This document shows, piece after piece, positions 10,075 through 43,323 of a stretch of DNA of 43,323 nt. The stretch's first letter is position 1, and every line of letters begins with the position of its first letter. The translations under genes were made by a program, and so were the position numbers. Source of the stretch: Chrysochromulina tobinii (Eukaryota); assembly GCA_001275005.1 (NCBI GenBank), contig JWZX01003171.1, positions 1 to 43,323 of the forward strand, written 5' to 3'. The notes beneath the pieces were generated by a model. It worked only from the letters and a program-made list of their open reading frames with translations, did not search any database and was not told the DNA's origin.

Positions 10075-13000
10075 TCACACGCGCTCGAGGCCACGCGGGA
10101 GGGCGTCCGCCCGCGACGAAGAAGTCAGAGGTGGCCTCCACCGCGAGCGCTGTACCGGGCGCAGCTCAATGTCCATCGGCGCTGTGTCGAGCTCCGACCT
10201 GCCTATTCTGGACTTCGGCGCCGTATCGAGCGCACTCGTGTCGGCGTCGGGCTCGTCGCGCAGCTTGCCCCCGCGCCGCACGGCGCCGCGGCCGCGGCTG
10301 CTCTCGTCGGTGCTCTCGTCGGCGCGCGCGGCGCTTGCGCCGGGGACGTACACGAGGGGCGGCCGGTAGAGATGGAGAAGGAGCGACGAGCAAACGACAG
10401 AGACGGAAGAGAGGCCCATGGCGGCGCCCGCGAACATCGGTGGTAGCTGGATGAGGAGCCACGGGTAAAAGACGCCCGCGGCGAAGGGGATGCCCACGCA
10501 ATTGTACCCCGAAGCCCACAGGAAGTTGATGCGGATGCGTCGCATGACACGCGAGGAGAGGTCGAGAGCAATGCACACGTCCGTCAGATGGCTCTTCATC
10601 AGGACCATATCGGCCGTCTCGATCGCAACGTCCGTGCCCGAGCCGAGGGCAATGCCCACGTTGGCCTGTGCGAGCGCGGGGGCGTCGTTGACGCCATCGC
10701 CCACCATCGCGACCACGTGTCCTAGGCGCTGCAGCTCAGCGAGCTTGGCGGCTTTGCCTTGGGGCTTCACTTCCGCGAGCACTCGATCTCGCGCGATCCC
10801 CGCCTCCCGCCCAATTTGGGCCGCCGTGCGCTCATTGTCGCCCGAGACGAGCCACACCTCGATGTTGCGCCGCTCGAGCCATTGCACGACGGAGAAGGCC
10901 TCGGGCTTGAGAGAGTCGCTCACCTGCATGCAATGGAGGGAGGCCATCAGAGGCCATCAGAGGCCATCAGAGGCCATCAGAGGCCATCAGAGGCCATCAG
11001 AGGCCCTCGGGCTTGAGAGAGTCGCTCACCACGACCAGCCCCACAAGGCGCAGCGCCGCGACGAGCGCCGTCTCGGGCGCCACGGCGACGAGCACCGCCG
11101 TCATCCCTTTGAGCTCATAGCCCGCCATCTCCTCCTCCTGCGCCGCATCGAGCTCGAGGGCATGCGCGTGCATCCACGAGCGCGCGCCCACGAGCACGCG
11201 CGCGCCGTCGACGGTGCAGCTCACCCCATGCCCGGGCGAGGACCGAAAGTCCGAAGGCTCGGTGAGGGACAAGCCCCGCGCCGCAGCGTACCTGGCGAGC
11301 GCCTTGCCGATTGGATGCTCAGAGCCACGCTCGGCAGAGGCCGCGTAGCGCATCAGGCGCGCCTCGGCGGCGCCGCCGTGGTGAGCACTTGCATGCATGC
11401 GCGCCTCGGGCGGCGGCGGCAGCGGCGGCGGCGGCCGATTGCAGCGGCGGCTCCTGCATGCGAGTGTTCACCACGGCGCCTGTAATCTCCTGCGCGGGTG
11501 GCTGCAGCGACGCGGGCGCGGCGGCAGGTAAGCCATCGACCCCCCACACGCTGACGTGCCTTACTCGGAGCTCGCCCGTGGTCAGAGTGCCCGTCTTGTC
11601 GAAGCAGACGGCCGAGACGGTTGCCGCCATCTCGAGCACATCGCCCCCTTTGATTAGGATCCCGTGCCGGGCAGCGACGCCGCCGCCCACCATCACGGCG
11701 GTTGGGGTGGCGAGGCCGAGCGCACACGGGCACGCGACGACGAGCACGGCGCACCCAAACATGAAGGCAAAGAGTTGCGTGTCTTTCAGGCCGCAATGGG
11801 TGAGGTAGTAGTGGGGCAGGTAGCCGAGCACATCGACCGCCGTCCACGTCAGGTAGGTGAGCAAGGCGAGGCCCACCACTACCGGCACAAAGTACGTCGA
11901 GACCCGGTCGGCGAAGGCTTGGATTTTGGGCCGTCGGTGCTGCGCGTCGGCGACGACCTTCATGATCTGCGGGAGGGTCGAGCGAGCCGTTGGAGAAGCA
12001 ATCAGGGAGGCAATCAGGGAGGCCATCAGGCGCCATCAGGCACCATCAGGCGCCATCACCTGCGAGAGGGTCGAGTGCTCCGGCGATCAGGGAGGCAATC
12101 AGAGAGGCAATCAGACGTCATCAGGCGCCATCAGGCGCCATCACCTGCGAGAGGGTCGAGTGCTCCGCGGACGCGAGCACACGCACGAAGAGGACGCCGG
12201 TGCCGTTGATGGTGCCTCCCATCACCTTGTCCCCCGGCGCCTTGGGAACCGGCATGGACTCGCCCGTGAGCATCGCCTCATCGACCGACGAGGCGCCGCG
12301 CAGCACCAGCCCGTCGACTGGCACGTGAGCGCCCGGGAGGACCTTGACGACGTCGTCCTTGGCGAGCGAGCTCACGGTGACCTCGCGCGGCTCCGAGATC
12401 GTGCTCGAGATCGAGATCGTGCTCGAGGTCGAGATCGTGCTCGAGATCGAGATCGTGCTCGAGATTGTGGCTGGCCCGCTCGGGTGCTCGTCGCTGGCTG
12501 GCTCGTCGCTGTAGCTCACCCAGGGGCCCTCGCACAGCAGGGCGGTAGGCGGCTGCAGCGTGAGAAGGGCCGACATGGCTTCAGACGCCTTGCCCCTTGC
12601 CGCTGCCTCGAGAGACTTGCCTGCCAAGATGAAGGTGATGAGCATAGCCGAGGTCTCGAAGCATTGCTTGTTCTCGCCCTGCAAGCCCGCGCTCGCGATC
12701 GAGAGCACTGTGAAGGTGAGCGAGTAAAAGTAGGCTGCCGACGAGCCGAGCGCGACGAGCACGTCCATGTTCGTCGCCCCATGTGAGAGCGCCGCGTACG
12801 CTGAGCGGTAGAAGCGCAGCCCGAAGCCGAACTGGACTGGGGTCGCGAGGATCCAAAGGAGCAGCACGCTCACGTCGAGGCCGGGGACGACGGCCACGGA
12901 GAGCGGCGCTTGGAGAGGCGTCATCGGCAGCACCATCGAGATGACGAACACCGGCACCGAGAAGATGGACGCGCCGAGGAGCTGCCGACGCCACGCGCGC

Positions 13001-14093
13001 GCCTCGGCCCCATAACCGCCCTCGCCTCCGCCTCCGAGGCGCTCGCTTTCTGGGCGGAGCTGCACCTCCGCCTCGTAGCCCAACCGTTGGATGGCCGCGA
13101 CAATCTCGTCGGGGCGCGTGGAGCGCTCATCGTACCTGATGAGGGAGGCCATCAGCATGCAATCAGCATGCAATCAGCATGCAATCTCGTCGGGGCGCGT
13201 GGAGCGCTCATCGTACCTGATCTTGGCCGCCTTCCCCATGAGCGACACCGACGCGCTCAGTACGCCTGGGTGCGCTCGCAGCCCCCGCTCGACGGCGCCG
13301 ACACACGCGGTGCACGTCATGCCCTCGACGGCGACTGTCAGGGTGCGCTCGAACTTGGAGGCCGCCCAGGACGGCGCCCGACCTGAGCCGTTCAACAGCC
13401 CTTCGGATTCGTCCACGGGCCCAGCCTCGTCCGCGGGCCCAGCCTCGCACGCCTCGGCCGGAGTCTTCGACGCCATCGCTGGGAAGACTGGCGGCTGGCG
13501 AGTCCGTGCAGCCCCGCTAGAGGTCGAGAGCGCCGACGCCGCGGCGAGAGGCAAGGCGCCGACGCTCCCGAGCGGTGGCTGCGGCTGCTGCGGCTGCGGC
13601 GGCGGCGGCTGCTGCTGCTGCGGCTGCTGCTGCTGCTGCTGCGACGGCGACAGCGCCTCGCAGCCGAAGCCCGACGGCCTCGACCAGCCGCCACCAGCTC
13701 TGCGACCGTGGCGGTCCCGCGCACGGTCGCCGTCTCGGCGGCGAGGTCGACGCTCGCCGCGAGCACACCCGGCAGTGCCGCGAGCGTCTCCTCCACACGT
13801 CCGGAACAGTGCTCGCAATGCATGCCCGTGACGCGTAGGAGCGTCTGCAGCTGCAAAGATGACGGTGATGACGACGACGGTGAGCCCGCTGCGGGCACCG
13901 CCGGTGCTGCCTGGAACCCGATCGCATTGACGGCGGACACCAACGCGTCCATGGACGCCACGCCCTGGACGGTCGCCGTCTCCGCTTCGAGGTCGACGAC
14001 GACTGTGCCCACACCGGGAAGCGCCCTCAGAGTCTCCTCGACTCGGCCCGAGCAGTGACTGCAGTGCATGCCTTTCACGGAAAGAAGTTGCAT
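10075..14093 (-). CDS. Copper-type P1B ATPase (ATP7/HMA5/CopA family) with three N-terminal HMA domains; at least 3 introns, 3 apparent +1 frameshifts
   Basis: GMHCSHC, GMHCEHC, GMTCTAC, TNMDVLV, TGES, CPCALGLATP, DKTGTLT, SEHP, GDGVND, YN..GIP and MGLSS (P1B-1 signature). Introns at 13216-13136, 12144-11967 and 11029-10924. Extra bases near 13684, 13671 and 11409. Confidence 0.93.
10924..11029 (-). other. Exon-echo GT-AG intron (106 nt) with (CCTCTGATGG)6
   Basis: First 25 nt (GTGAGCGACTCTCTCAAGCCCGAGG) are identical to the next exon's start; ends TTGCATGCAG; splicing gives LVV-VSDSLKPEA. Confidence 0.88.
11967..12144 (-). other. GT-AG intron (178 nt) with CTGATGGCGC/CTGATTGCCTCC repeats and two copies of the upstream exon end
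   Basis: Splicing gives the conserved STLSQ-IMKVVADAQ. Acceptor CTCGACCCTCCCGCAG copies exon end CTCGACCCTCTCGCAG; internal copy at 12082-12060. Confidence 0.88.
13136..13216 (-). other. Exon-echo GT-AG intron (81 nt) with (GCATGCTGATT)3
   Basis: 40-bp perfect direct repeat 13101-13140/13182-13221; ends GGCCTCCCTCATCAG; splicing gives KIR-YDERS. Confidence 0.88.
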
Positions 14094-14413
14094 CTTTTCC
14101 CGGCTGGTTCTAGACTCCCGTAGGCGTTCCCGTAGGCGGGCCGCCGCTCGGACTGCGGCGCTCTCGGTCGCCCTCGGGGCCGCCGGCTCGCCCGTGGTCG
14201 ACGTGATGGAAAAGCGCAAAGCCGGCGCTAGTCCCGCCTCGGCGCAAGTTCGCTATCGAGCGCGTCCAGTTCGGCAAATTTCCCACATACTCTGCTTCTC
14301 ATTCGTGGGCTCCATGCACCAGCGTTCCCTCTGCAGTGAGAAAACGTCTCGCCGAAACTCGTTGCAAAGGTTTACCGGTACGAAACAAGCGAGGTCGGGT
14401 CCGTCGGCGACAA

Positions 14414-17023
14414 ATGGAGACTCGGGTCGGGAAGGTGCTGCTACTCATCGTGACGGTCGCGGAAGCTGTCAACAACCAATGGCGTATTGTGCATGAGCGA
14501 CGACGCCTGGTCGCACCCATCTCGGAAGAGGCTCAGAATCGCCGCACCCTGGAGCGCTTCACGAAAGGCCATCCCGACAACTCAATCTGCTGGGACCGCG
14601 ACGGCCTCGACGGCTTCATCAACGTGATCGACGCGCACCAGCACCCGGTGCCCTTCGGCGGGCCAGAGGTGCCTTTTTCGCTGTACACCGACTGGTTTAT
14701 CCAGCACGGCACAGTGTTCTCTGTCTTCATGGGCATCGGCCAGAAGATCACCAAGCAGAACGCGTCGGCGCCCGACTGCTGCTACTACATGCACTGCCCG
14801 ACGTACGACTACCCGGTGATCCCGAGCGTCGAGAACGACGAGATCAACGCCATCGCTCGGCTCGAGCACTACTACGGCAAGGTTGACCATAGGCTCCACC
14901 TCATCACCTCCGCCACGTTCCCGAGCCTCCAGAAGAGCGAGGGCGCCAAGGATCAGCTGCTCGCGCTGTGGGCAAAGTACCCGAATACGTTCAAGTGGCT
15001 GGGCGAGATCAACGTATTCAAGCACGCGCTCGCGGGCAACGCGTTCTTCTCCGACTTCACCGGCCCTCGGCTCACCGTCGCACGCGTCGAGTCGGGTGAG
15101 CTCGATGCTCTCTTCAGCGTCATCGGTCCGAAGCAGCCCAACGGCGAGCAGATCCCGGCGGCGACGCTCCACTCGGACATGGGGTGCGACACGTACCACT
15201 TCCTGCCCGGCTCGGGCGATGGCGTCACCCCTCTCAAGTGTGAGGCGTCCGATGAGGACAAGCGTATCGCGCAGAGCAACCATGCTTGGTGGAAGGCGAC
15301 GCTCGGCCCGTGAGTGCTCGCCTTCTGACTGCCTCTGACTGCCTCTGACTGCCTCTGACTGCCTTCTCTGACACGCGCGAGCTCCGGCGACCTCCCACGA
15401 TCTCCCGTGACCTCCCGTGCTCACACGCGCGAGTTCCCGTGCATGCATGCATGCGTGTGTGTGTGTGTGCCCCCCGACCTCTTTCGGGTGTGAACGCAGC
15501 TTCTACTCCGGCTTCTTCGACGAGAACGACTACCCCAAGTCCAACTTCCGAGAGATCATGCACATTCACGTGACGCACGCGATCATGGACCGGTACCCCA
15601 AGGTCAAGTTCGTCTGGGCGCACGTGGGGCTCAGCCAGGAGCTTGCCACGCTGCACCCGGCCGTGCACGCGCGCATCCTCGAAGTCTTCTTTGAGCGATT
15701 CTCGACCAACCTTTGGCTCGATACGTCGTGGGACGTGCTCGCCAAGCAGAACTTTGTGAGAGGTTACGGCGCGTCGAACCCGCCCGCGGCCCCATCGGAG
15801 CCCCGAGATGGGCCGAGATTGCGACCGAGATTGCGACCGAGATTGCGACCGAGATTGTGACCGAGATTGTGACCGGATTGTGCTCGTGCCTCCTCGCCCT
15901 CCACCGACCCCCCCCTCAAGGTTAATTACGACGGCCAGCCGATCGAGAACCTTTGGTCCTCGTGGGCGTCGGAGGACCTCACCGACGACGCTCTCTTCGA
16001 CATGCCCAAGTGGACGAGCGCGCGCGAACGACTCGATAAGATCTGGCAGGCGAAGAAGGGTTCGATCTCGAAGACGGAGAACCTCTGATGACCTCTGATG
16101 ACCTCTGATGACCTCTGATGACCTCTGATGACCTCTGATGACCTCTGATGACCTCTGATGGCCTCTGATGGCCTCTGATGACCTCTGATGACCTCTGATG
16201 ACCTCTGATGACCTCTGATGACCTCTGATGACCTCTGATGACCTCTTGATTGCCTCCTTCATCAGGTTTGATCTCGAAGACGGTCACGACGCTCACGGGA
16301 CCCTCGCACAAGATGGCCGTGCTCCTCGACCTGATGGAGCGATACCCGGATAAGTTCCTCCCCGGAACGGACTACGTGGCCTCCTTCGGCTCTCACGACG
16401 ACTTCCCCGGCTACACGCCCCTCACCGGTGCCCCGAACAACCCCGCGCACAAACGTGAGGATGCGCTCACGGACCGTGTGACTGGCGACGGCTCGGCCGC
16501 GCCGGACCTCGGCCTCGACCACGACCGTGGCGGCTGCCATAAGACGGAGATGACGCACTCCGAGCAGATCACGGATACCTCGTCGCTCAACATGTTCTTC
16601 AACGACGAGCTCTTTAGTGCCATGGTGCTCGGCACGAACTTCTTCCGCGTGGCTGGCCTCGCCACACAGTTCGCCGCCCCACCGCTGTGTCGCAACGACC
16701 CGGACACGCCGTTGCCCACCGCGACCGTCGGGTGGAAGCCGGGGGCAGCCGTCGCCACCACTATGCAGACGCCGACGACCATCTCCACGCTCGGTACGGC
16801 GCCCGCCAGGGTGGACGCCCGCGACGGCGCCGAGACCGCATCGGTTACGTCCTTGGGACGTTTAGGGGTCCCGTCGCAGGCGGTCGTGCCGCTGATGCTC
16901 CTTGCAGTCATGCTCCTCGCTGGCCTAGTGTACAGGGTAGGCGTCACCCAAGGGCAGAAGTCCGCCGTCGATCGAGATTACGCTCTCCATCAAGATGGTG
17001 CGAAGCCGCTCCTCCCGTCTTAA
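14414..17023 (+). CDS. Secreted, C-terminally membrane-anchored amidohydrolase-superfamily (TIM-barrel) protein; 4 exons
   Basis: Signal-like METRVGKVLLLIVTVAEA. Motifs IDAHQH, GEIN, LHSD, WAHVG, LDTSW and PDKFLPGTD; C-terminal TM VVPLMLLAVMLLAGLVY. Introns 15310-15499, 15756-15920 and 16060-16265 join the frames (LGP-FYSG, QNF-VNYD, KKG-LISK). Confidence 0.8.
15310..15499 (+). other. GT-AG intron (190 nt) with (GCCTCTGACT)4 and CCTCCCGTGA-like decamers
   Basis: CC|GTGAGT...AACGCAG|CTTC restores the frame. Confidence 0.8.
15756..15920 (+). other. GT-AG intron (165 nt) with a (GATTGYGACCGA)~5 12-mer array
   Basis: TTT|GTGAGA...CCCTCAAG|GTT restores the frame. Confidence 0.75.
16060..16265 (+). 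other. Exon-echo GT-AG intron (206 nt) with 16 RCCTCTGATG decamers
   Basis: Starts GTTCGATCTCGAAGACGG versus next exon GTTTGATCTCGAAGACGG (17/18); array at 16081-16240; ends TGCCTCCTTCATCAG. Confidence 0.88.
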
Positions 17024-17665
17024 GATGGTGCGAAGCCGCTCCTCCCGTCTCGGCTTCACGCGTGCGTTCGGTTGCCGTGGGGTGTGCCGTCTCGCCGGCG
17101 ACTCGATGCCATCGGCTCGGCGGCCGGACCGTGCTACGTGGCTGAGCCGTTGCACCCGTTAGTTTATTTGTCGTCGACTCGCCCACCCGGGCGTGAACCG
17201 TCGCGTGGATGCATTCAGATTCATGACTCCTGGAAGCTGGATCAGATGGAATCTCGTACCGTGGCGTTCCCGTCAACGCCGAACCCCGCCCGACCGCGAA
17301 CCGAACCGACGCCGGGTCCCGGTCCCGGTCACGTGTCGTGTGAGCTCCGTCGTCTTCGCCTCATCGTCCATACGGTAAGTCGAGTATGCGTTGACCGTTG
17401 TGCCATTGTGGGCCTGGGTGGCGTGGGGGGTTCTTTAGGCGTTCCCGCTCGCGTACACTATTTGGAGTTAAAAGGGTTAACTACATTTGTGCGGTGGGAT
17501 TCGATGGGCGATTTGACCGAAGGTCGCGTGTCTCATGCATGCGGGTAGGGGTACGTGTATGATCCTATGGAGATCGATGCTCGTGTGGAATGGGGAGATC
17601 GAAGCGGCGGGCGTCCCAGAGTAGTAGAGAGTTGGGTCCGGCCGCTCGCAGCGCCCCGACGTGAT

Positions 17666-18793
17666 CTACGCCCAGATCGCAAGCAACGCCATGAGGGCGG
17701 CACCCACTCCGGTGCTCATCATCCGAAGCACAGGCAGCGAAGGTATGCAGCGTGCTGGCAGGCTGGGCCAAGGGCTGGGCGGTAGTCTCTTCGCGTCGCA
17801 CGAGTCGAGCATGATCGCGAGCATTCGATCCTGGGTGCTCTCGGTGAGATTCGATCTCCCCATCAAGCCCTCGGTGAGATTCGATCTCCCCATCGCGAGC
17901 ATTCGATCCTGGGTGCAGCAATCCGTCATCCCCTTCTCGTCACGCCCGGCCGGCCAGCACTGCTGGCCAGCAGTCAGACTGCGGCAGTTCAGATCGTGTA
18001 TGAGCGCCGGTGGCCGCGGCTCGTCGGCATGCGCGCTCACCATGTGCATACTGATGTGGGTGAGGGTGCCTGCAGCTAAGCCATTCATCAGTCCTGAAGA
18101 CCATCTGAACGTGAGATCGTGGGCCAATCCGGCGTAGACCTGACGCGCCGCGAAGCCAATCGCGACCCCAAGCGGGAGCGAGAGGGTGAAGACAAGGTAG
18201 GTACGGCGCCATGCGGACCGACGGAGGCCGCTCTTCATCCCGAGGAGGCCTATAGCGAGCCCTTCGAGGCATTGGTGGACGCTCAGCGCGAGGCCGAGTA
18301 CGAATTGCTCCTGGGCGCCGAGCTCTCCCAAGCCAAAGCCGAGCCCGACGAGCACCGAATGGATCGAAATTGACGCCTCTAAGACGTGGAACGTATGAAG
18401 GAGCTGCGGAGAGCCGAGCTCCGCCACCGATCCTTTCGACAACAGCGGTAAACCAGCAACGCTTGGGACATGATGACAGGGCCACGTGAGTTCCTGGACG
18501 GTCGCCATCATCAGGTAGCCTGTAAGCATGGCAGCATTCGCGGCAGGATACATCGTCAGCCCTTCAAGCCGCTCCTGTGCGTCATTGAGCAGGTGCAACC
18601 ACGCCACTGCCACGAGAACACCGGCGGACATGCCTTTTAGGCACTCGAGTCCACGCGATGGGCCAGCAGTCTCGGACGCCTGCGCTGAGAGCAAGCCGAG
18701 TATCGAGCATAGAGTGATCCCCAGCACCACGCAAATGGAGACGAATGCGTTGCGCATGGGGCGGTCAAGAACCCAAGCAGCTCCGAGTACCAT
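17666..18793 (-). CDS. ZIP-family (ZRT/IRT-like) metal transporter
   Basis: Multiple TM helices; SAGVLVAVAWLHLL, SISIHSVLVGL, HQCLEGLAIG, GLAAGTLTHI and terminal MALLAIWA. Start chosen at ATG 18793. Confidence 0.85.
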   Translation of the reverse strand: MVLGAAWVLDRPMRNAFVSICVVLGITLCSILGLLSAQASETAGPSRGLECLKGMSAGVLVAVAWLHLLNDAQERLEGLTMYPAANAAMLTGYLMMATVQELTWPCHHVPSVAGLPLLSKGSVAELGSPQLLHTFHVLEASISIHSVLVGLGFGLGELGAQEQFVLGLALSVHQCLEGLAIGLLGMKSGLRRSAWRRTYLVFTLSLPLGVAIGFAARQVYAGLAHDLTFRWSSGLMNGLAAGTLTHISMHMVSAHADEPRPPALIHDLNCRSLTAGQQCWPAGRDEKGMTDCCTQDRMLAMGRSNLTEGLMGRSNLTESTQDRMLAIMLDSCDAKRLPPSPWPSLPARCIPSLPVLRMMSTGVGAALMALLAIWA

Positions 18794-18927
18794 CGCGTTC
18801 AGGACAGCCCCTCTTTTCTCATTGTGAATGGGGGCTCCCCCGCCGAGCGCCGGCGCCGGGCCGACTCCCCTGTGGGGAAAACGGGGAGGAGTGCGTTCAG
18901 GAGGACTGCGCCCAACACAGGACGTCC

Positions 18928-18990
18928 TGTGAACGTAACGCGACACGGGCCGTAGCACCGGTTGTCGCGTGTGTCGCGTTAACTTTCACA
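18928..18990. promoter_or_regulatory. Candidate bidirectional promoter: two divergent copies of GTGTCGCGTTA(A)CKTTCACA
   Basis: Minus-strand copy at 18928-18946 and plus-strand copy at 18971-18990, between divergent genes. 18949-18989 matches 30876-30916 at 37/41 nt. Confidence 0.45.
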
Positions 18991-19098
18991 CAAGCGGTGT
19001 TTGTATGAATGTGAATGTGTGTCTGTGTGATTTCTAACACACGCGGGAAATCCGCGTCGCACTGAGCACATTGAAAACTATGCGGTGAGCCGTATCGT

Positions 19099-21951: not shown

Positions 21952-22613
21952 TATTTTGAGATACGCGACGTGGCAATGAGGCGCGGTATACATTTAGACA
22001 CTTCATGATCTATGTAAATGTTGGTGCTTGGCATGTCGTGGAATTTACTTTGCTAGGACCCCTTCTCGTTAGAAGACACACACAAGACTCATGGCCATGC
22101 GTTAACAGCGCCCCAGCGCTTCCCCAGGTCGCCAGCAGAGTGTTTGTGACACGCAACAACGGAAAGGAGACTCTCGCGTATGTCAAAGCGTACGATGCCG
22201 TGCAGCAAATCTACACGGTGGAGCTCGAACAGCTTGACTCTAAGAAGTTCAAGAAGTGCGACGAAACATCTCTGCGAGAGGCCAACATGCTCGAGGGGAT
22301 GATCTATAGCATCTCTGCACGCGCCAACCCTGCACGCGTCGACGATGACTTCTTCTTGGGTCATACAATCGGGTACTGTAGGAACGGGTCGGATAGATTT
22401 CGGTAAGTCAGTCTGGTCAGCGCGCTCCACGCCGCGCGCGCCCCAATTTCCTTTTAGGGGTCCGGAGATCGCGCGCGTTGTGTTAAACAGCAGCAGCAGC
22501 AGCTTTCCTTTTTGGGAAAGTGACAAGTCACAAGTGCGGTGTGAGGGGCCGTCGTTTTACTTCTCCTGGAGAATGCACGTTGTGCCCGTCGTGTCGCACG
22601 CCCGCGGGACTGC

Positions 22614-30916: not shown

Positions 30917-30979
30917 GCGTGACGGGAACTCGCGCGAGCCACAGCACACACGCTTCCGGCGCGCTGACGCCCGCCCGCG

Positions 30980-32767: not shown

Positions 32768-33272
32768 GGGGGGTCTTGTTAGTGTGCATCACTGCAGACT
32801 GTACACTGCGTAGTACACGCCCATCGCTTTGGGAAGGCATGCTGACCCTTGGGTGCGTGCGTGTATAGGTGTGGCCCGGTCACCAAAAAAAGCAAACTTT
32901 CCTAGGAGCGAGCGGATACACGTATACAGGATGGATTTTTTACTCATGATGTGTCGCGGTCCGCTGTGGTTCGAATTCCGATCGCGTTGGAACCGTATCG
33001 ACGGTCCGGATTCCATACCGTACCGTCGATACGCCACGCATCGTATCTTTCAAATGCTGCTGCGGCGTCGAGGGCTGCACATCCGGGCACGCGGAGAGTC
33101 GGCATGTCTGCTTCGTCGCTCACAATTGCGCCGTCACAATCGCGCCGTCTCGGATCATCTCTCGCACGTGGTCGGCCAGCAGCGCGTGGCATTTTACATG
33201 GCTCAGCGTAGTATAAGCGGCCAGCAGCGCGCGGCACGTGGTTCAGCGTAGGATAAGCGGGCAATACATGGA

Positions 33273-35210
33273 TCAGCGGGTCCAGCCTAGCCTTCTGGCA
33301 GCCTCGGGTGAGGGTGGCGCCTCCGACGAGACCAAGTCCCATCGATTTACAGGCACGAGTGCTCCCGAGTGCAGCAGCCGGTTGACAAGCGAATCCTCCT
33401 CCTTGGCGAGAGCGAGCTCGGCACGGCGCGTCTTGCTCCCCCTCGGCTTGCGGGCTCGCGCCCGCGCCGGGCTGCCGCGTGCACGCAGGTACGCATCATC
33501 GGCCTCATCAAGATCGACCCATCGCCGGGAAGGCGATGCAGTCGACCGTCCGGACCCCGGCGTCTTCGGGGTGGCGCCCTTCCCGACCGGCGACTCGTAC
33601 CGGAAGGACGAGGCGTCGTCGTCGTCGTCGTCATCTTGACGAAACCGGACCGAGCTCGGCTTCTTGCCTTTCTTGGGCGAGGACGACATGGCCGCCGCCA
33701 GCGCCGCCTGCCCTAGCTCACGGGCCGCGGCTGCCTTTTGCGCCTCCGCAACCGCCAGCGCAGAAGCCTTGCGCTTCAGCTCCGCCTCCGCCACCTCCAT
33801 CCTCGCTCTCGCTTCGTCCGCCTTGCGCTTCATCTCGGCGAGGAGCTTGGCCATCTCGGCCAGCCTCCGATCGGCGTCCGCCCTCTCGGCGCGTGCAGCG
33901 GCGGCCTCGGTCAGCTGATGGGATGCCGCCGCGAGCTTCGACTCTGCCTTCTGGGCTGCCGCCTTTGCTTCGGCCATCTGTGCCTCCATCGCACTCATCC
34001 GCTGCAGGACCTCTGCACTCGCCGGCACACCGCCCGATTTCGACTTGTATTCGGCGTGCTGCCGCGCCAGCTGTGCCTTGAGCTCCTCAATGAGCCTCTG
34101 CTTCTCCACATTCTCCGCGCGCAATCTCGCTATCTCGGCCTCGCGGTCGGTGGCCTTCGCCTGGGCCACCCGATTGGTGGCGACCTTGGCTGCGAGTGTT
34201 GGCTTGTACTCGCTGCTGCTCGCACCGGTCGAGAACGCGCTGTCCTCTTTCCCCTTCTTCGCCGCCCGAAGCGCCGCTGCGAACTCCGCCTCCTGTTTCG
34301 TGATCCGTGCAACAAGCTCCGCCTCCTTTGTCGCCATGCGTTTCTCCATCGCCGCCAGCGCCTCCTCCGCAGCGTGCTGCCTCGCCTCAGCCTCGTGCGC
34401 GACGACTGCCATCGCCTTGGCCGCGCTCTCGGCCGCCCGCTCCTCGTCCAGCTTGGCAATCCAATGCGCCGCCGTCGCTTGCAAAAGGTCCTCTTCCGAT
34501 TGTACATCGTCGACATGCTTGTCGTGCCAAGTGGCCATCCTCTTCAGAGGCACCCGGGGGGGCGTCGGATGAAACAGGGCACCTTCCGTCGTCTTCGCGG
34601 CCGTCGCCTCCGCCGCCGCCGCTCGTGCGAGCGCCGCCGCGAGCTTCGCCTCCAGCGCCGCCACCTCCGTCGACAGGCAAGCTCGCACCACCTCAGCTGA
34701 AGGGTCGTCCACAACCTTGGTGACCACAACGGCGCCGCCTTTCTCGACAAAGCCTCGGACGGGCGCGTCGTGGCGGATGTCCTGACCTTTGATGTCGGTC
34801 TTTGCCTTCGCATCCTTCAGCTTGGCCTTCATCTCCGCATTCTTCTGGCGCAGCTCGCGCTCAACATCAGCTGGCGACCGTGTCAGCGCGTGCTTGAGCT
34901 CACTGAAATCGACATCGCCGCTGCGGTCCGCGTCGAACGCGTCGAAGACAGAATCGATCGCCGCCGTCGGCGCCGAGAAGCCCATCGCCCTGATGCCGGC
35001 GTGGAACTCATCGCGGGTGACGGACGCGCTCTTGTCCGCGTCCCACTCCTTGAACAGGTCCATGACCGTGAGAGCGTTGGCATGGAGCTGCACCTGGAGC
35101 TGCTCGCCCACACTCAGGTCGGCCTTGGGATCGATCTGGATCAAATGCGACGGCAGCGGTTTCGTGTTCTTGTTGAGCTGCTTGGCAGGCTTCTTGAGTG
35201 CTGGCGGCAT
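33273..35210 (-). CDS. EF-hand pair + long coiled-coil protein
   Basis: DLFKEWDADKSASVTRDEF and FDADRSGDVDFSEL, followed by Ala/Glu/Lys-rich heptads; 645-aa ORF. Confidence 0.8.
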   Translation of the reverse strand: MPPALKKPAKQLNKNTKPLPSHLIQIDPKADLSVGEQLQVQLHANALTVMDLFKEWDADKSASVTRDEFHAGIRAMGFSAPTAAIDSVFDAFDADRSGDVDFSELKHALTRSPADVERELRQKNAEMKAKLKDAKAKTDIKGQDIRHDAPVRGFVEKGGAVVVTKVVDDPSAEVVRACLSTEVAALEAKLAAALARAAAAEATAAKTTEGALFHPTPPRVPLKRMATWHDKHVDDVQSEEDLLQATAAHWIAKLDEERAAESAAKAMAVVAHEAEARQHAAEEALAAMEKRMATKEAELVARITKQEAEFAAALRAAKKGKEDSAFSTGASSSEYKPTLAAKVATNRVAQAKATDREAEIARLRAENVEKQRLIEELKAQLARQHAEYKSKSGGVPASAEVLQRMSAMEAQMAEAKAAAQKAESKLAAASHQLTEAAAARAERADADRRLAEMAKLLAEMKRKADEARARMEVAEAELKRKASALAVAEAQKAAAARELGQAALAAAMSSSPKKGKKPSSVRFRQDDDDDDDASSFRYESPVGKGATPKTPGSGRSTASPSRRWVDLDEADDAYLRARGSPARARARKPRGSKTRRAELALAKEEDSLVNRLLHSGALVPVNRWDLVSSEAPPSPEAARRLGWTR

Positions 35211-35379
35211 TCCGGCATTGTGTGGCCGGATGTCGAATTGAGGCAGAAACTTTTTTGCTGTGAAGACATGGCCGCCTTCTAGTGAACTTCACATTGTGAA
35301 GTGTTGCGACACGACACCCAGCTGAGAACAGACACACCGGACCGCGATAAATGAGAAAGACAGTCGCCCGTGGCAGATC

Positions 35380-36924
35380 TCATTTCTCGCGGGGCTTGAC
35401 GAAACTGTTGAGGAGGTTCAATCCGAGGTTGATGGCGCTGTAGCCGGCGTTTGCCTGCTCGGCGCTTGCCGACGCGATCGAGGCCTGTCCGTCGCCTTCA
35501 CCGCTCGGCGAGGCGCCGACTCCGCGCCGTCCGAAGACCTCGGTGAAGGCTTGTCGGCTGACATGGAGCGCCTGCGCCGGCAGTTGGGTGGAGCCCTCGG
35601 GCTTGTACACTTTCAGGTCGCTTCGCACCGCCGTGCCGTAAGCGTGGAACTCAACCAGCCCGTTCGCGACCTCGACGATGTCGAGCTCCAGTCCGATGAT
35701 CTCGTCCGCGCCGAGCGCCAGGGCGTCTTGGTAGATCCCGTCCATGACGTGTGCACGCGCCGCCTCGAGCACCTCATTGTATCTGGTGATCTCGCCACCG
35801 CGCATCTCTTGCCCCCAAGATTTGAGCATGCCTCCGAAGCCCACGTTGAAGACGCTCGTGCGTGTGACCACTCCGACGGGCAGCATCCCACAGTCCATGC
35901 AGGCCCACAGATCCGCTTCCGGCAATGAGGAGGTCTTGACGTCCTCGGGCGACGCCGGAGGCCGTAGGTCTGAGTGGGTGCATGCCGTGCCGCGCACGGC
36001 AACCTCCTGGAGAAAGGACCAGTTGGACGCCTGCATCTGCACGCCCGACACGAAGGGGCACCCTTGCTCGTGCGCCTCGACGCACAGGCGGTAGAGCGCG
36101 GCATTGCGAGCTCGATTGAAGACGTCCGAGATGGCTGGCACCTCCCCGGACGAGATTGTGCTCGCAACGGCGGAGCGAAAGAAGCCTCCCAGCCCTCGGG
36201 AATAGGCGTCGTTGCCAAAGACCACCGTCTTGGGCGTGAAGCCGCACTCCAGCAAGCAGTAGAACTGCTCGCCAGAGCAGCCAGCCACGAACAGAGTGGG
36301 CGGCGGAGCCACCTTAGGATGATGAGTCTCCTCATCAACGGAGAGCCAGTCGGAATGGACTCGTGGAGATGCCCCCTCGGTCGGTGGAGACGCCCTCTCG
36401 GTCGGTGGAGACGCCCTCTCGATTGGCACGGGTGGACACTTCTCATGATCTTCGAGCGCGACCACGGTGCTGCCGATTGCCACGACCTCGAAGTGCGATG
36501 CCTTGTGCACGAGTTGCAGGCTCGTCCCTACGACGCCCGCCCCGCCGCGTGCCACGGCCTCTGCCATCAGCTTGTCCATCGCCGTTTGCCGAGCACTCGA
36601 AATCAGCCCGGTGACCTCGGCGTTGCTTCCTCCCTGAGTTTGCGACCACGACGAAAGGAAGCCATTGATCATACCCATGCTCTGTGCAGCCGAGCCGAGG
36701 ACCAGGTGGTGCGGCCGGAAGCCCTTCTTCCTCAAGCAGTAAATCTCGCTCCCATTCAAACGGGTCGCGCGGCACGAGCTCCACCATTGCGCAGGTGAAA
36801 GTGACTCATCCACTGAGGCGGGAGGAGATGAGCGAATGGGCTCGGCTTGCAACCAGCAGCGCCGTCCGAGCCGCAGCACTGGGCCCCTGAACGGTGCCGA
36901 CACCAGTTCCGGCACCTTGAACAT
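35380..36924 (-). CDS. Protein with three tandem YbjQ/UPF0145 (putative heavy-metal-binding) domains
   Basis: Three repeats of GE....L..AR..A...L..EA...G...V.G...EV.A.GT.V, e.g. GEITRYNEVLEAARAHVM..ALALGADEIIG..EFHAYGTAV. The ORF is open to 37071; first ATG at 36924. Confidence 0.78.
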   Translation of the reverse strand: MFKVPELVSAPFRGPVLRLGRRCWLQAEPIRSSPPASVDESLSPAQWWSSCRATRLNGSEIYCLRKKGFRPHHLVLGSAAQSMGMINGFLSSWSQTQGGSNAEVTGLISSARQTAMDKLMAEAVARGGAGVVGTSLQLVHKASHFEVVAIGSTVVALEDHEKCPPVPIERASPPTERASPPTEGASPRVHSDWLSVDEETHHPKVAPPPTLFVAGCSGEQFYCLLECGFTPKTVVFGNDAYSRGLGGFFRSAVASTISSGEVPAISDVFNRARNAALYRLCVEAHEQGCPFVSGVQMQASNWSFLQEVAVRGTACTHSDLRPPASPEDVKTSSLPEADLWACMDCGMLPVGVVTRTSVFNVGFGGMLKSWGQEMRGGEITRYNEVLEAARAHVMDGIYQDALALGADEIIGLELDIVEVANGLVEFHAYGTAVRSDLKVYKPEGSTQLPAQALHVSRQAFTEVFGRRGVGASPSGEGDGQASIASASAEQANAGYSAINLGLNLLNSFVKPREK

Positions 36925-37308
36925 GTCGACCAGCACCACACTGAACTGTGAATTTGAATCGGCGGGACCCAGATTCGTCAAGCCTCTAGCTGCAAGCTGG
37001 TATCCCCCCGACCCTCGCCAGATTCCTTTAGAAGGAAAATCGGTCAGCACATTTGCACATAATGAACTCACGCAATCTTTGAAAAGTTGGAGTGATGAAC
37101 ATGACTCAGTCTCTCAGTGAGTGATGAACTGTCCATGTGTGATGATAAATTCCTAATCTGTGTAATACTGTAACTGTTCACAATGAGCTGAGCGCAAAAC
37201 TCTGGAAATGTCCTCTCCGTTGCCCTTTTTCATCTAGATGTTGCCCCGCACTCCTCGAGCGTTTCTTCTACACTGCGTGTACATAAGGAGTGGCCTCCTC
37301 GCCAGGCT

Positions 37309-40139
37309 CTAGATCAGGAGCTCCAGCTGCGCCGCCTCGCCCGCGTCCCGGAGTGCCGCCACCGCCTGCTCGTCGTGCGTCGTGCGGAGCAGACCGTGCG
37401 CGTCCGGCGCGCGCGCCTCGTCCAGATAGTTCTCGCGCACGTCCACCCGCCGCAGTCGCAGTGGCGGCGCCCGAGACGACGCTCCCGCCTCAGCCGCCGC
37501 CCGAGACGACGCTCCCGCCTCAGCCGCCGCCCGAGACGACGCTCCCGCCTCAGCCGCCGCCTGACTCGCCTCGTCGCACGCCTGCCGAAGGCATTCGGCC
37601 AGCAGGGCGGCGCCGCCAGATCCAATCTGATTCTCGGCGAGATCGATCGAGGTGAGAGATCTCGACGCGAGCATGGCGCGCGCGAGAGCATCGAGACCGC
37701 TCAGATCGGGTGCGAGCGGACACACCTTGACTTCGGTGCCATCCCAGTGCGTGACTACTACGGCGCGCCCCAAATGGGCGACGCGCGCGCCGACCTCGAT
37801 AGGGCCACCCTCCACCGCGCTCGCCGGCAGGTAGCCGCTCTCGCCGTCGCCGAGATTGTTCGAGCTCAGTCGAAGGCAAGTGAGGCTCGAGCAACGCGCG
37901 AGAGCGGCCGCCACGGCCGAGGCGACCGCGGGTCCATCCACCAGGTTGGCGTCATCCACAGACCTGATGAGAGAGGTCATCAGAGGTCATCAGAGGTCAT
38001 CAGAGGTCATCAGAGGTCATCAGGGGCCATCCGCCAGGTTGGCGTCATCCACACACATGGACAGGTTGAGTTCCGTCAATGAGGGCGTCGTCTCGAGCGC
38101 GCGCGCGATCGCCTCGACGCCAACAGCCCCCATACCCGTCTCGGATAGGTCGAGGGAGCGCAGCCGCGGCAACTCCTCGAGCGCCGTCGCGAGCGCGACG
38201 GCTCCCTCCGGGCCGATGGGATTGTGCGCCACATCGAGGCTCGTGAGGGCCGTGAAATGGGGTAGCGCCGCGCTGAGCGCCGTCGCCTCTGCCGCCGTCC
38301 AGGCCAACGTGCTGAACGAGAGGCTCGTCGCGCTGACCGACACGGCGCCAAAAAACGTGCGGTACACGCGGCTCACAACGGCCGCGTCGGCAGGGTCGCT
38401 AAAGGCCTTGGCCTCTCGGAAGAGGGCGTCGGCGGCGTCGGGCAGAAGCGGCGGGGGCCGGTGCGTCGAACAAACGTGCTCGAGCCGCCGGCTCGGCTTC
38501 CAATAGCCTCCGGCATACGCGGCCGATGCGTCGCGGCCGGCGTCCGGCGACCGATGTCGAGGCGGCGCGCATGGCTCTTGACCACGGCACTCGTGGCCGC
38601 CTCGCAGAAGCAAAAGCCAGAGGCGTCGTAGGTGGCGCCGCTGAATCCGGCCGGGACGGCGCTCTGCATCCAGACGACTGTGTGGGCGTGGCCGCACCAG
38701 AGGTCGGTCGAGTCGCGCAGCCCACGGACGAAGAGGAGCTCTTCGGGCAGGGTCCGTGGCGGCTGGAAGAGGGAGGCAAAGTCCCAAAAGAGGCCGAAAT
38801 CGGGAGGTTCCGTCAAGCCGGCGCCCTCAAAGGCGGCGGTGAGGGGCGAGCGTGAGATGAGGGATCGCTCGGCCTCGAAATTGGGCAGCAGGTAGGTCTG
38901 TGCCACGTCGGCGACGGCGTCCAGATGGAACCGATCCGGGTCGCAATGCCACGTCGCTAGCCACTTGTACGACAGGATGACGAAGAGCAGCCCGAAGTCG
39001 GCGCCGAGAGCGGTGGCAAGGCGGCGGAGCGTCGGCGCACCGAGGAAGGCCTCAGGCGGCAGATCCTGCCGGCGCTCGATGCGCCCGCCAGATCGGCGCA
39101 GATTCACGAGCCATCGGCCCGAGATCGGCGAGATTGCACCCGATTCGACCGTCTCGAGCAGCGACTCGACTGCGAAGTAGCGGTCGACTTGGCTCAAGGC
39201 CGCCGTGGTGTACGAGCGTTTCAGTGGGTGCGGGATGGAATAGCGCTCGTTGAGAGTGAAGCTGCGGCTCAGCGCGTGCCCTCGCGTAGCCTCCGACGCA
39301 GCCGCTGTGCTCGTGGACTTGTCAGCTGCTCCTGTGGAATCCTCAGGAACGCTCTCTGAGAATCGAATCTCTGAGAATCCAGATGTGGAATCCGCAGGAA
39401 TCTCGTCGAATCGAATCTCTGAGAATCCAATCTCGTCGACCTCCTCGTACGTCTCGGGCACGCCGAGGCCGGAGGAGGGACCGACGTCGATCTCGAGCAG
39501 CATGCCCGCGTACCCATCCTCGGGCACCATCACGATCAGTTCGGAGCCCTCCCATTCCACGGTGAACTCTTCTCCCGGCACACAACCGTCGGGCACCACG
39601 GCTTCAATGGTCGTCCACGTCGTCGCAGAGGGCTCTGAGGCCGTGGCGTCCAACCCGTTCGATGCTGAGGACTCTGAGGCCGAGGTCGACTCGATGATGG
39701 CGGCGGCGAGTTCGCGCGCGAAATTCCGGGTCTCTGTGCGGTTGAGCTTGAGCGGAGGCTTTGGTAGAGGCACGGCGAGCAGCAAGTCGTCGTCCTCCTC
39801 CTCGCATCTCCCATCCGTGCCCAGGAGCGCATTCGCGACGGCCCGCAGCGGCCAGCCCGGCGCGTGTCGAGCATCGTTGAGGACCTTGGAGAGTGCTGCC
39901 GCCAGCTCGTTCAGCTCACCCGCACTGGGCCTTGTGGCGGTGGAAGGCGCAGCAGCGGTGGGCGGAGCCCTGCCGTCTGCTTGTGCCTTCAGGTGGCTGC
40001 CGATGAACCCGAGCCGTTCGGCGGTTGGCACAGGCAGCGATGCTTGGACTGCCGCCGTCAGAGCGGTCTCTAGACTGGCGCGGATATACTGCTCCTCAAA
40101 GTACGGCGGCAGCGTCTGCTCGTCGAGCGCTTCTAGCAT
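37309..40139 (-). CDS. Second HET-like + LRR protein with N-terminal Dpy-30/RIIa-like helices; one frameshift near 38530 and intron 38056-37964
   Basis: LFVILSYKW..HCDPD, LFWDFASLFQ, LWCGH..TVVW and YDASGFCFCE; LRRs LDVAHNPIGPEG, LDLSETGMG, LSSNNLG and LAENQIG. Confidence 0.7.
37964..38056 (-). other. Exon-echo GT-AG intron (93 nt) with ~5 ACCTCTGATG decamers
   Basis: First 34 nt match the next exon's start at 31/34; ends GACCTCTCTCATCAG; splicing gives LNLSM-SVDDANLV. Confidence 0.85.
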
Positions 40140-40281
40140 CCCGAGGCTTCCGCGCTTTCCGAAAACATCGAAAACATTTTGAAAAGTGAAGTTCAACACA
40201 GAACACCAATCGGGCCAAACTCACCTCGAGCTCTCTTCGCGAGTGCCCTAGAACTGTGAACGCATATTCCGCAATCCTTCC

Positions 40282-40782
40282 ATGTCTCGCCGAGCCCGCG
40301 CTGCACCCAAGGCCAACGTCTCCGCCTCTGTCCGACTCGGCCTGACCTCGCTCGCCGAGGGCAACGAGGACGCCATTGCCTCGATGCTCTCGGTCGCCCC
40401 GACCGACGACCTGGTCGAGAAGATGATAGACTGCATGGGTGTGAATGGCCTCTCCGCCGAGATGCTGATCGCAAGTTACTTTGGGCAGAGCATGCTCGCA
40501 ACGTACTGCGTTCGGCGGCTCAACAAGAGCGACAAGGGCTCAGTGCCAGCGCTCGCCGAGCGGATCGCACGTGAGTGGGCCAAGCCGAGCTTTGAGCCGT
40601 TGTCCGCGCATGCAGGGCTCAAGAAGAGGTCGGCGGAGGCTGCTCCGGACGACGAGGAGGACGTAGCCGCGAAGCGCGTGAGCGCGCTCGAGGAGATCAA
40701 GACAAAACGCGCGAGGCAGGCCGAACAGGCTGCCGCACGGGTAGCGGCGACGGCGGCCAAGGCGGTCGCGAAGGAGGAGTAG
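40282..40782 (+). CDS. Small hypothetical protein with a basic, probably nuclear tail
   Basis: 166-aa ATG-initiated ORF with GC3-biased codons, divergent from the HET-LRR gene. Confidence 0.6.
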   Translation: MSRRARAAPKANVSASVRLGLTSLAEGNEDAIASMLSVAPTDDLVEKMIDCMGVNGLSAEMLIASYFGQSMLATYCVRRLNKSDKGSVPALAERIAREWAKPSFEPLSAHAGLKKRSAEAAPDDEEDVAAKRVSALEEIKTKRARQAEQAAARVAATAAKAVAKEE

Positions 40783-41177
40783 AAGGTACATGTCATGTAG
40801 GTCCAGGACTCTATAACATTCAAGTTGTTCAGCTAACATTCCAATGCGTCGTAGTTTCATAGATCGTTACCGCCTTCCAGCGACGCACACGTGGCGAGGG
40901 TGAGGCCTAGAGGAGCAGAGCGTGGTCAGCGCTAGTGAGGGGGAGTGTGTCTGAACTGATGAAAGTTCGCATCACGCAAAGGCACATCCGAGAGGCGGGG
41001 GTCGCTACCGATCGGCGCGGTCTCGGTTTACTATTCTTCTCTGCATCTAGCCCCCATCAAAGATTCGGTTTCGGAATCGAGCGGATAACTTTGGCATGCA
41101 TCGACAGATACGTTCAGATTACAAAAGTTCACCAGGGCCCGACGGGCTGTAAAGACCTCTGACCCGCCGCCGACTCC

Positions 41178-43323
41178 ATGCGGTACTCTGCGCCGTACAT
41201 GTACGACGCGCCCAATGCCTTCGCCGCGCAGCCCACGCATCTGCGCGGCATCGCACCGACGGTTTTGAAGCTGCAGCTCACGCCGCTCGGGCTTCCATTG
41301 CCGCACATCGCCGGACCTCCATCGCTCGGCGAGCCCGCGCTGCCACGAATCTTCAACACGTTTAACCCGTCGATCGCGCCGGCGCCGCACTCGCTTCGTC
41401 GACTTTGCCCTCGCTGCGCATACGTAGTGGCCTTGCGCGCCGAAGCGCTGCACCAGTGCAACGCCTCGTCGCCGCTATTGAAGCCGACCAGCAGAGGCAA
41501 GGCCATCGCAACGGGCGCCTACTTCAAGGGCACGGCGCTCGCCGTGCTTGACGCGTCGCTGGAAGTACTCGCATGGACGTGGATGCTGCCGCGGCCCGAG
41601 GATCAGGTCTCGATTGCGCACAACGGCAGCCGCTGGTTTGTGCCTCCGGGCGTGCACGACGGCTTCGCGACACCGCCGTGGGGCAAGCCCGCATACGATA
41701 CGAGGCTGCTCCTCTTGGATGGGGAGCACCTGTTCGCGACGACGAACTGCAAGGCGTGCACATTCATGGTCGCCAAGCTCGAGGTGACCGCCGAGCCGAC
41801 GGCGAGCCATGCATCCTCGCCCAGCATGCAAGCGCTCACCACGGCGGGCCCTGCGAGCCATGCATCCTCGCCCAGCATGCAAGCGCTCACCACGGCGGGC
41901 CCTGCGAGCCATGCATCCTCGCCCAGCATGCAAGCGCTCACCACGGCGGGCCCTGCGAGCCTCGCCCAGCATGCAAGCGCTCACCACGGCGGGCCCTGCG
42001 AGCCATGCCTCCTCGCCCAGCATGCAAGCGCTCACCACGGCGCCGTGTCCCTTTCCCACAGGTGACCGCCGAGCCGACGGCGAGCGGCACGCTCACGGCT
42101 CTGCGCGTGTGGGCGCCCTACCGTCTCCGTGGCTTTGAGAAATGGCTTCAGGGACGGAACCAAGCGCTCTTTGGCGGGCCGAGCGCGGCGCCGATGGAGC
42201 GGCACGAGGGGGAGGGGATGGCGGCGGAGGTAACGACGCCGTCGCCGGCCGGGGTCCGCACGGCACCGTCGGCGACGAAGGCGAGCGCGGTGGTCCGCGG
42301 ATCGCCTTCAGCGCTCCTGATTCAACCGTGGCTGGGGCTGGTGGCCTCGATGGGTGTTCCTCTGTTCCGACGGCAGTACCACGCCCAATGCTATCCGCAG
42401 CAGGCTCAATGGTGGGGCTCGACCACGGTAGAGGCGATGGCTGCCAAACTAGGCAAGGCGAGGGCGCACCGCCTGTGGGAAACGTCGACGTGTGGGCCGA
42501 CACCGATTGGAGCACCTCTGAACGCGACCGTCCTTGAGCCGCGCCGCTGGGCGCTCGAGCACGGCGTGGATGACACGGTGAGTGCGCGCCGCCTCGCCCG
42601 CCAGCTGCTCCGCGCGCACCGCGCGGAGCGCGCGGGCTGGCACAATGCGAGCGGCGCGCTGATCGGTCTTGCCAACTTGGGAAACCAGACAGTAAACCAG
42701 ACAGGGTGGGGGCCTAGCGCGTTCTCGTCCTCGTCTTCGTCCTCGTCCTCGTCGTCCTCTTCCTCGTCGGCGGTGGGCGAGGGGTCGATCGCGCGGGGTC
42801 CTCGAACGCTCGATAGGACGCTCAACGGCCATCCATTGCGCTTCGGAGAGATCGCACTGCTCTTCAACCACACGGGCCTCGAGCGACGGCGAAGGACCTT
42901 CGACGTTGGGGGCTCTCGTGTGTCTCCAACGGCCAATCTCGTTCTCATCTCGCGCCCTCGAGGCTCGGCCATGGGAGACGGCGGCGGCGAGGGCGGCGGC
43001 GAGGGCGGCGGCGAGGGCGGCGGCAGGGGCGGCGGCAGGGGCGGCGGCAGGGGCGGCGGCGAGTGCGAGGCGCTGCTCGGGATCGGGCACACGCACCGCG
43101 GCACCGGCCATCTTGAACGCCGAATGCTTCGTGCAGACGCGGCGCGTCGAGAAGACTATTCCGCAGGCCTCATCTCCGGCAATGGTCGTCATGCGATGCG
43201 GCGGCGCAAGGGTGGCGGCAAAGGCGGCGGCCAGGGCGGCGGCAAGGGCGGCGGCGGCGGCCTGGGCAGCGGCAAGGGCGGCGGCGGCGGCAAGGGGGGC
43301 GGCGGCGGCAATGGCGGGGGGGG
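41178..43323 (+). CDS. Hypothetical protein, 3'-incomplete; intron 41784-42061
   Basis: Exon 1 (FNPSIAPAP, YFKGTALAVLD, YDTRLL) splices KLE-VTAEP into a frame open to the window end (WLQGRNQALF, IQPWLG, ALLGIGHTHRG), which the ORF track misses. Confidence 0.7.
41784..42061 (+). other. Exon-echo GT-AG intron (278 nt) with five copies of a ~51-nt unit
   Basis: First 24 nt (GTGACCGCCGAGCCGACGGCGAGC) are identical to the next exon's start; unit GCGAGCCATGCATCCTCGCCCAGCATGCAAGCGCTCACCACGGCGGGCCCT; ends CTTTCCCACAG. Confidence 0.85.

Follow-up and report, generated by a model that had tools for sequence, protein, structure and literature searches.

Introns that open with a copy of the next exon in the haptophyte Chrysochromulina tobinii: evidence pointing to intron gain by duplication-assisted insertion

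Introduction

How introns originate is a long-standing question, and one stretch of haptophyte DNA carries introns that appear to have kept a copy of the exon sequence into which they were inserted. The stretch is contig JWZX01003171.1 of the Chrysochromulina tobinii assembly GCA_001275005.1 (43,323 nt, positions 1 to 43,323 of the forward strand; hereafter the window, meaning the whole of it). At one end these introns hold an 'echo', a copy of the neighbouring exon's edge. Most often this is a copy of the next exon's start, which supplies the GT donor, and it is followed by a shared cargo, typically a tandem satellite, that brings the AG acceptor. The echo introns are real, widespread and spliced where this could be tested, and we infer that they arose through intron gain by duplication-assisted insertion. 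As such they would open many intron births to study. In at least half of a large class of introns a long and unambiguous trace of the exon's state before insertion survives, and the alga is in culture (the sequencing runs are labelled mixed culture), so that the origin of gained introns, the chemistry of their junctions, their age and their reversal can be measured on a large scale.

Results

Echo introns in the window

Five introns begin with the first 25 (11029-10924), 35 (13216-13136), 18 (16060-16265), 34 (38056-37964) and 24 nt (41784-42061) of the exon that follows, with 0, 0, 1, 3 and 0 mismatches respectively, and a sixth candidate, 2907-2792, begins with a perfect 9-nt echo and has no satellite. 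All six start with GT and end with AG, and their positions, echo lengths and mismatches agree with an earlier note made from the sequence alone. With the first two bases set aside, a match of this kind would arise by chance at a given site with a probability of 1e-8 to 1e-19 for the five long echoes and 9e-5 for the 9-mer, which possibly marks an older or an unrelated event. A scan of the window for GT/GC...AG pairs with a copied exon start recovered all five long-echo introns; its remaining hits were repeats within coding sequence, satellites matching themselves, the known duplications seen in antisense, and a small number of weak pairs. The claim that excision restores an open frame held for the five long-echo introns, each of which leaves a stop-free frame, and failed in part for 2907-2792, where the frame is open over the junction and meets a stop further on, so that a further intron is needed.

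The gene at ~10075-14100 (minus strand) is a Cu(+)-type P1B ATPase with HMA, E1-E2 and hydrolase domains, its best named relative coming from Prymnesium parvum (52% identical), which points to a haptophyte host. Once spliced, both of its echo junctions align to homologues without a gap; the retained forms contain stops. RNA was compared over the left-hand introns (11029-10924, 13216-13136, 16060-16265 and 12144-11967). Records from two RNA runs (X13 record 12 and X15 record 20) both place 394 nt between 15309 and 16265, the exact exon sum once 15310-15499, 15756-15920 and 16060-16265 are removed. For the two ATPase echo introns, among the rows listed, RNA records stop at the exact echo edges (X12 record 2 ends at 10898, record 4 at 13182, the remainder of each unplaced), which is consistent with splicing without showing it directly. 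A further record, X13-10, ends at 12145, at the donor of 12144-11967, with 25 nt unplaced.

The duplications are also found outside the window assembly. Record 27 of DNA run X2 spans 10980-12051 and joins satellite, echo and upstream exon in one record, and locus L098, from a different assembly, agrees with 37674-38303 in 625 of 630 nt, intron 38056-37964 being present in full. One of the five differences in L098 makes its exon match the echo, so that one of the three echo mismatches in this intron is a strain difference in the exon; an echo can therefore preserve an ancestral exon base. Run X2 has one base fewer than the window at 13684 and one fewer somewhere within 10980-12051, and apparent ATPase frameshifts fall in both regions; the window thus probably carries single-base errors there.

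Satellite acceptors in metagenome loci

A three-unit satellite pattern, searched in 3 of 64 parts of a metagenome collection, was found in 139 stretches at 134 loci, from which ~3200 are estimated overall, many being the same organism re-assembled. These loci were picked by satellite content, so the echo fractions that follow apply to the satellite class and not to introns overall; two satellite introns in the window itself are free of echoes. Together with the window the loci held 196 satellite acceptors, or 128 after removal of redundancy. At a threshold score of at least 12, an echo was present at 64 of the 128, while swapped controls gave 3 of 372 and offset controls 12 of 128, bearing out beyond the window what the earlier note had seen within it. 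Of the 64, thirteen lie inside iterated arrays and have an acceptor ahead of the echo; when these and four satellite 'echoes' are set aside, 47 clean cases remain, of which 40 start with GT or GC and 10 are iterated. The 37 single-copy cases have echoes of 12-40 nt (median 21), 15 of them perfect, with 40 mismatches in 895 nt. Furthermore, a short echo (8 of 10 bases) occurs at 22 of the 50 GT/GC acceptors that lack a long one, where 4.9 would be expected. The following exon starts with GT at 94 of the 128 acceptors (73%) against 566 of 6869 arbitrary CAG sites (8%), the latter not being verified ordinary acceptors.

Related intron sequence is present in many unrelated genes, as in introners: the open reading frames (ORFs) flanking cargo introns belong to diverse host genes, and three tail variants (last 20 nt) account for 40 of the 128 acceptors. 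Run X2 yielded 9937 DNA records on 17 kb, heaped on the satellite bins, and the cargo is therefore a dispersed repeat. Within 500 nt, neighbouring satellites lie on the same strand 241 times and on opposite strands three times, partly as pieces of one array, a bias that selection could explain since antisense satellite would be rich in AG and GT signals; a strand test based on ORF length was uninformative (20/37). Cargo introns cluster (L069, L075, L050, L034), with up to nine well-separated satellite acceptors in a single 10-kb locus.

A second cargo and a mirror class

An unbiased GT/AG echo scan of the loci was too noisy to count (235 hits against 114 on reversed strands), its only yield being a second cargo, absent from the earlier note. 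This is a ~20-nt motif followed by a pyrimidine tract and AG, usually in single copy, and 13 of 28 occurrences come with an echo, compared with none of 297 swaps; 11 further copies have no clear AG or lie at an edge. The cargo units of 10, 11 and 51 nt given in the earlier note are correct in length, but the 51-nt repeat of 41784-42061 is an iterated form of the second cargo and unrelated to the 10/11-nt satellite. As the two cargos behave alike and the second is mostly single-copy, satellites are not the essence of the phenomenon. Reiterative copying of a short template, which the note had proposed, is likewise unsupported as the core of the process, and no sign was detected that satellites grew out of the exon start by local snap-back copying (p 0.26 and 0.08, 112 acceptors).

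When satellite regions were merged, 245 fell into 28 with a 5' echo, 12 with a 3' echo, two 'middle', 24 without register and 179 with none, against 9 of 725 in controls. The 12 with a 3' echo form a mirror class, also missing from the earlier note, in which the intron ends with a 14-45-nt copy of the upstream exon's end that supplies the AG; an example at 12144-11967 adds a sixth event, in the ATPase gene, to those already noted. In the two 'middle' regions (of 66 flanked by repeats) AG|GT stands mid-region with satellite cargo inside. The 24 no-register regions have the flanking repeat but lack a GT/GC-AG register, and several are second insertions at an existing donor. The second cargo and the mirror class show that the satellite is not the constant feature; what recurs is a duplication of 12-45 nt flanking some part of an intron.

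Junction structure

In the 5'-echo class the AG end is precise. The other end is ragged: the first satellite unit lies -5 to +24 nt from the end of the echo and the satellite starts in 8 of 10 phases. Among 40 upstream joins, 24 have 1-62 nt of filler, and all 16 direct joins have 1-5 nt of microhomology (mean 2.4 against 0.87, p 0.015). Of the ragged downstream joins, 30 of 38 could be scored, and eight of these are direct, with 2-7 nt of microhomology (mean 4.6 against 0.74). Similarity between introns does not run from one boundary to the other, the 5' part being derived from the host exon and the cargo variable in offset and phase, and the duplication, at 12-40 nt (median 21) or 14-45 in the mirror class, is neither fixed nor short. 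The commonest tail folds as a 7-bp hairpin (two of three window tails), which makes the satellite unit an inverted copy of the tail; the two do not qualify as terminal inverted repeats (TIRs), as there is no fixed 5' end, the hairpin lies within the tail only and the second cargo lacks it. One whole intron folded no better than its shuffles (z 0.55). The earlier note's description of long, variable duplications supplying GT and a TIR-free cargo supplying AG is thus upheld, and its preference for break repair or template switching over a classical transposon is supported by the echo, junction and phase data.

Age and variation

Echo mismatches do not behave as the age series that the earlier note saw in them: in 37 introns the mismatch rate followed neither tail decay (rho -0.10, p 0.57) nor satellite purity (rho -0.14, p 0.42). 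Non-synonymous changes make up 18 of 26 echo mismatches, as expected if they arose in the intron copy. Two assemblies of one locus (L018 and L067) differ by one 56-nt echo-plus-satellite unit, and the arrays are therefore still changing. ATPase homologues on contigs of 632, 387, 360 and 268 kb are called as single ORFs that span the sites ungapped, running through two, three, three and three of the three sites tested, whereas on other long contigs proteins from these homologues' clusters are broken up into tiles, which suggests an ORF caller blind to introns. This is indirect support for newness; echo-bearing introns are likely to be recent gains.

Discussion

Comparison with known systems

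Introners of Polarella glacialis (classes 4/5 and 6/8/10), Symbiodinium and Aureococcus carry the AG and recruit the GT from a duplication (bioRxiv 10.1101/2020.10.14.339549; 10.1101/2022.06.06.494994). Echo introns resemble them in bringing in an AG, in taking GT from the start of a target duplication and in having many copies in unrelated genes. Those introners are described with duplications of 3-8 nt, fixed for each class, and with defined ends, whereas echo introns have duplications of 12-45 nt (some shorter or longer), a ragged inner junction, two unrelated cargos and both polarities. Introner family 5 of a Chrysochromulina sp. (10.1101/2022.06.06.494994) is also from a haptophyte, free of TIRs and dependent on one co-opted site; it differs in its 4-bp duplication and in carrying the 5' site while co-opting the 3' site. 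Compared by description rather than by sequence, it comes nearest to the mirror class in polarity, though not in duplication length.

Neointrons of Daphnia pulex, ascribed to the repair of staggered double-strand breaks, have 4-12 bp repeats and AT-rich inserts whose source is mostly unknown or unshared (PMC4202315), and a few break-repair introns are known from Drosophila (PMC2809761, PMC3296678). Echo introns share with the Daphnia cases a direct repeat of the adjacent exon at the intron's far end, but differ in having repeats 2-5 times longer and, as their insert, a piece of other introns that recurs. In the tandem genomic duplication and intron transposition models (PMC3296678) a duplication likewise gives the splice site and an existing intron is likewise the source. 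Pure tandem duplication, however, would give both sites and no foreign cargo, and here only the two 'middle' regions come near it, with satellite inside. Retroposons without long terminal repeats (non-LTR) share with the 5'-echo class alone a precise 3' end, a truncated 5' end with microhomology or filler and a variable duplication; unlike them, echo introns show no poly(A) in the cases listed, include mirror and no-register classes with ragged 3' ends, and have no partner long interspersed nuclear element (LINE) in the flanking ORFs examined. Reverse splicing would transfer an intron in its entirety, and a long duplication would not result. Echo introns work like introners and like Daphnia introns and yet fall outside the definition of each, the ends of the element being undefined and the cargo recurrent. 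The Emiliania genome paper reportedly notes 10-11-nt tandem repeats in introns.

The pattern is not described in the literature searched (which held few subscription journals, and whose scope ended short of the supplementary introner tables of the Gozashti papers, which could list these families), nor in the parts of PMC4580454 and PMC2784329 reached by word look-ups. About 72% of introner families are unclassifiable (PMC12130899), and for introns born of repair the record amounts to tens of cases, their repeats measuring 4-12 bp (PMC4202315). Echo introns also matter for annotation: introner pipelines that demand similarity at both boundaries (10.1101/2020.10.14.339549) would overlook them, and echoes cause read aligners to misplace the junction.

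Origin of the echo introns

The observations to be explained are the duplication, the shared cargo, the splicing-compatible register and the ragged junctions with microhomology. The reading we favour, about which our own judgement is evenly balanced, is that staggered breaks in exons are repaired by microhomology-primed copying of part of an existing intron, the products then being filtered by splicing; templated repair of this kind fits best given the symmetric polarity, the two cargos, the ragged microhomologous joins and the long, variable duplications. Filling in of the staggered ends would duplicate the exon edge. A right-hand end, often starting GTGCG or GTACG, would pair with the AG|GT junction of a donor and copy leftwards through the acceptor and branch-point repeats to give the 5'-echo class, and a left-hand end finishing in CAG would copy the donor's 5' part to give the mirror class. 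Insertions in a register that does not splice would be purged from exons by selection and persist only inside introns, and echo-plus-cargo repeats would arise later via slippage or unequal exchange. The template could be either DNA or unspliced RNA. More tentatively, the process may run genome-wide, with the acceptor or donor half of ordinary introns copied into staggered breaks, the duplication completing the splice site and the copies serving as the next templates. If true, this would be a self-amplifying, element-free mass gain of introns, reversible by recombination between the duplicated copies.

Several results weigh against repair by copying from existing introns. An intron-free allele or paralogue was found among the loci for none of 63 junctions, after satellite and low-complexity hits had been filtered out and one of 64 junctions dropped as pure satellite. 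The read-through ATPase ORFs would favour intron gain, but they are homologues only ~50% identical, called by unspecified gene callers and placed on no tree. Filler rather than a clean join occupies most junctions (24/40 upstream, 22/30 downstream). Priming would lead donor and target to share junction sequence, and this coupling is weak (p 0.048 and 0.054 in 64 rare-tail pairs), with no trend across all 8065 pairs, and the clearest case (3/7 against 4/121, p 0.003) was spotted before it was tested. Introns lying close together are not more similar than those far apart (p 0.25 and 0.18, 108 acceptors), as they should be were the donor in the same gene. The GT exon-start bias and the strand bias can both stem from selection alone, and the duplications exceed the 4-12 bp reported for Daphnia repair introns (PMC4202315).

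All three introns with a GAGAACC satellite variant (L010:4976-5060 on the plus strand, one on the minus strand of L114, and window 16060-16265) precede exons starting GTTCG or GTTTG. They sit in different genes, L010 and the window agree at 11 of the first 12 exon bases, and a donor-recipient lineage is possible.

Among other explanations, the 5'-echo class would be accounted for equally well if a LINE-type endonuclease and reverse transcriptase used an AG-ending RNA, either a short retroposon or an intron after its excision, as template for copying into nicked DNA, with 5' truncation removing the donor, the target duplication giving GT and slippage of the enzyme making satellites. A precise 3' end, a ragged 5' end and a variable duplication are hallmarks of target-primed reverse transcription, and all are seen in this class, where the precise AG end abuts the duplication and the 5' end shows microhomology and filler. 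We nevertheless hold this to be rather unlikely: the mirror class is explained less well, ragged 3' ends there and in the no-register class would demand internal priming, poly(A) is not seen in the listed cases, and at least two bases are common to duplication and cargo end in only 13 of 37. Neither a reverse transcriptase nor a transposase appears among the listed family matches (top five per protein) of the 60 longest of 350 flanking ORFs, which also tells against a non-autonomous DNA transposon, of the introner or miniature inverted-repeat (MITE) kind, with a hairpin end and an integrase leaving long variable duplications. Bacterial IS1549 and IS1634 do leave long variable repeats, and the hairpin of the commonest tail, with its inverted copies of unit and tail, would suit such an element, as would the division of labour between duplicated GT and carried AG known from P. 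glacialis classes 4/5 and 6/8/10 (bioRxiv 2020.10.14.339549). Yet there is no fixed 5' end (-5 to +24 nt, eight phases), the cargos are two and unrelated, the whole intron is no more structured than shuffles, and published introner duplications are 3-8 nt and class-specific; we consider a transposon of this sort distinctly improbable.

Slightly less improbable, though still unlikely, is that these are old introns whose ends were rebuilt by local tandem duplication and satellite expansion, the echo displacing an earlier donor in place. Units of echo plus cargo are often iterated (in 10 of 47 clean cases, with 13 of 64 echoes following an acceptor) and vary between assemblies, second hits occur at existing donors, and the search for empty sites came back without one. 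The old donor would, however, have to be lost precisely in half or more of the introns, the shared cargo in unrelated genes and the 73% of GT exon starts would go unexplained, and homologous ORFs on long contigs span the sites. A mis-joining of satellite-rich reads that doubled exon starts is scarcely credible. Short-read contigs do break at satellites, and the window has apparent single-base errors, but echoes occur in 40 loci including the window, the copies differ from their exons at 40 of 895 nt, L098 holds the same intron with substitutions of its own, and the X2 record described above joins satellite, echo and exon.

Features of the window and other observations

The window has a base composition of 54-71% GC and is eukaryotic; its relevant features are collected in Table 1.

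Table 1. Introns and related features of the window (nt positions)
Position	Strand	Feature	Setting	Echo or repeat	Cargo or interior
2792..2907	-	candidate intron		9-nt echo	neither cargo present
10924..11029	-	echo intron, 106 nt	Cu(+)-type P1B ATPase gene	echo 11029-11005 = exon 10923-10899	10-nt satellite, acceptor of TGCATGCAG type
11363..11404	-	42-nt insertion	ATPase	short direct repeat	second-cargo fragment without its own AG, flanked by the repeat
11967..12144	-	mirror-type intron, 178 nt	same ATPase gene	16-nt copy (1 mismatch) of upstream exon's end at 3' end, source of AG	85-nt duplication of exon end plus satellite
13136..13216	-	echo intron, 81 nt	ATPase HMA domain	echo 13216-13182 = exon 13135-13101	11-nt satellite, acceptor CCTCATCAG
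15310..15499	+	intron, internal control		echo at neither end	related 10-nt satellite
15756..15920	+	intron, internal control		echo at neither end	12-nt satellite
16060..16265	+	echo intron, 206 nt	gene without Pfam match	echo 16060-16077 = exon 16266-16283	16.6 copies of 10-nt unit
37964..38056	-	echo intron, 93 nt	leucine-rich-repeat gene	echo 38056-38023 = exon 37963-37930	10-nt satellite
41784..42061	+	echo intron, 278 nt	upstream ORF without Pfam match	echo 41784-41807	second cargo motif x5 in 51-nt unit, then pyrimidine tract and AG

Judged from its sequence, the insertion at 11363..11404 would be either in-frame coding or a weak GC-AG intron. No structured-RNA match to Rfam was found in the window. 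The cargo patterns had no match in prokaryote genomes, and the satellite and cargo patterns had 0, 2 and 1 matches in viral contigs, L001 being unrelated. Viral contigs also held relatives of the ATPase, at 30-49% identity, which were set aside. One record classed as viral (L165:760-1060) ends in what looks like intron sequence, where the motif of the second cargo occurs together with a pyrimidine tract and AG; it is probably a chimeric contig end. At L006:190-1692 and in L039 lies a repeat element with AAAACAC-rich ends and differing interiors. Close to one of its ends it carries the CTGATTGC satellite, and it may represent a family of transposons that has acquired, or is spreading, that satellite. 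The 9-nt-echo intron is adjoined by an ORF at 1842-2885 (minus strand) with a Hint module (PF01079, E 3e-18). For 2793-2880 and 5506-5582, run X2 contains second copies that differ by ~10% and are paralogues, and one of these stretches covers that intron. Within an ATPase exon, an 18-nt repeat at 12394-12465 (minus strand) stays in frame and encodes a Ser/Thr/Ile run.

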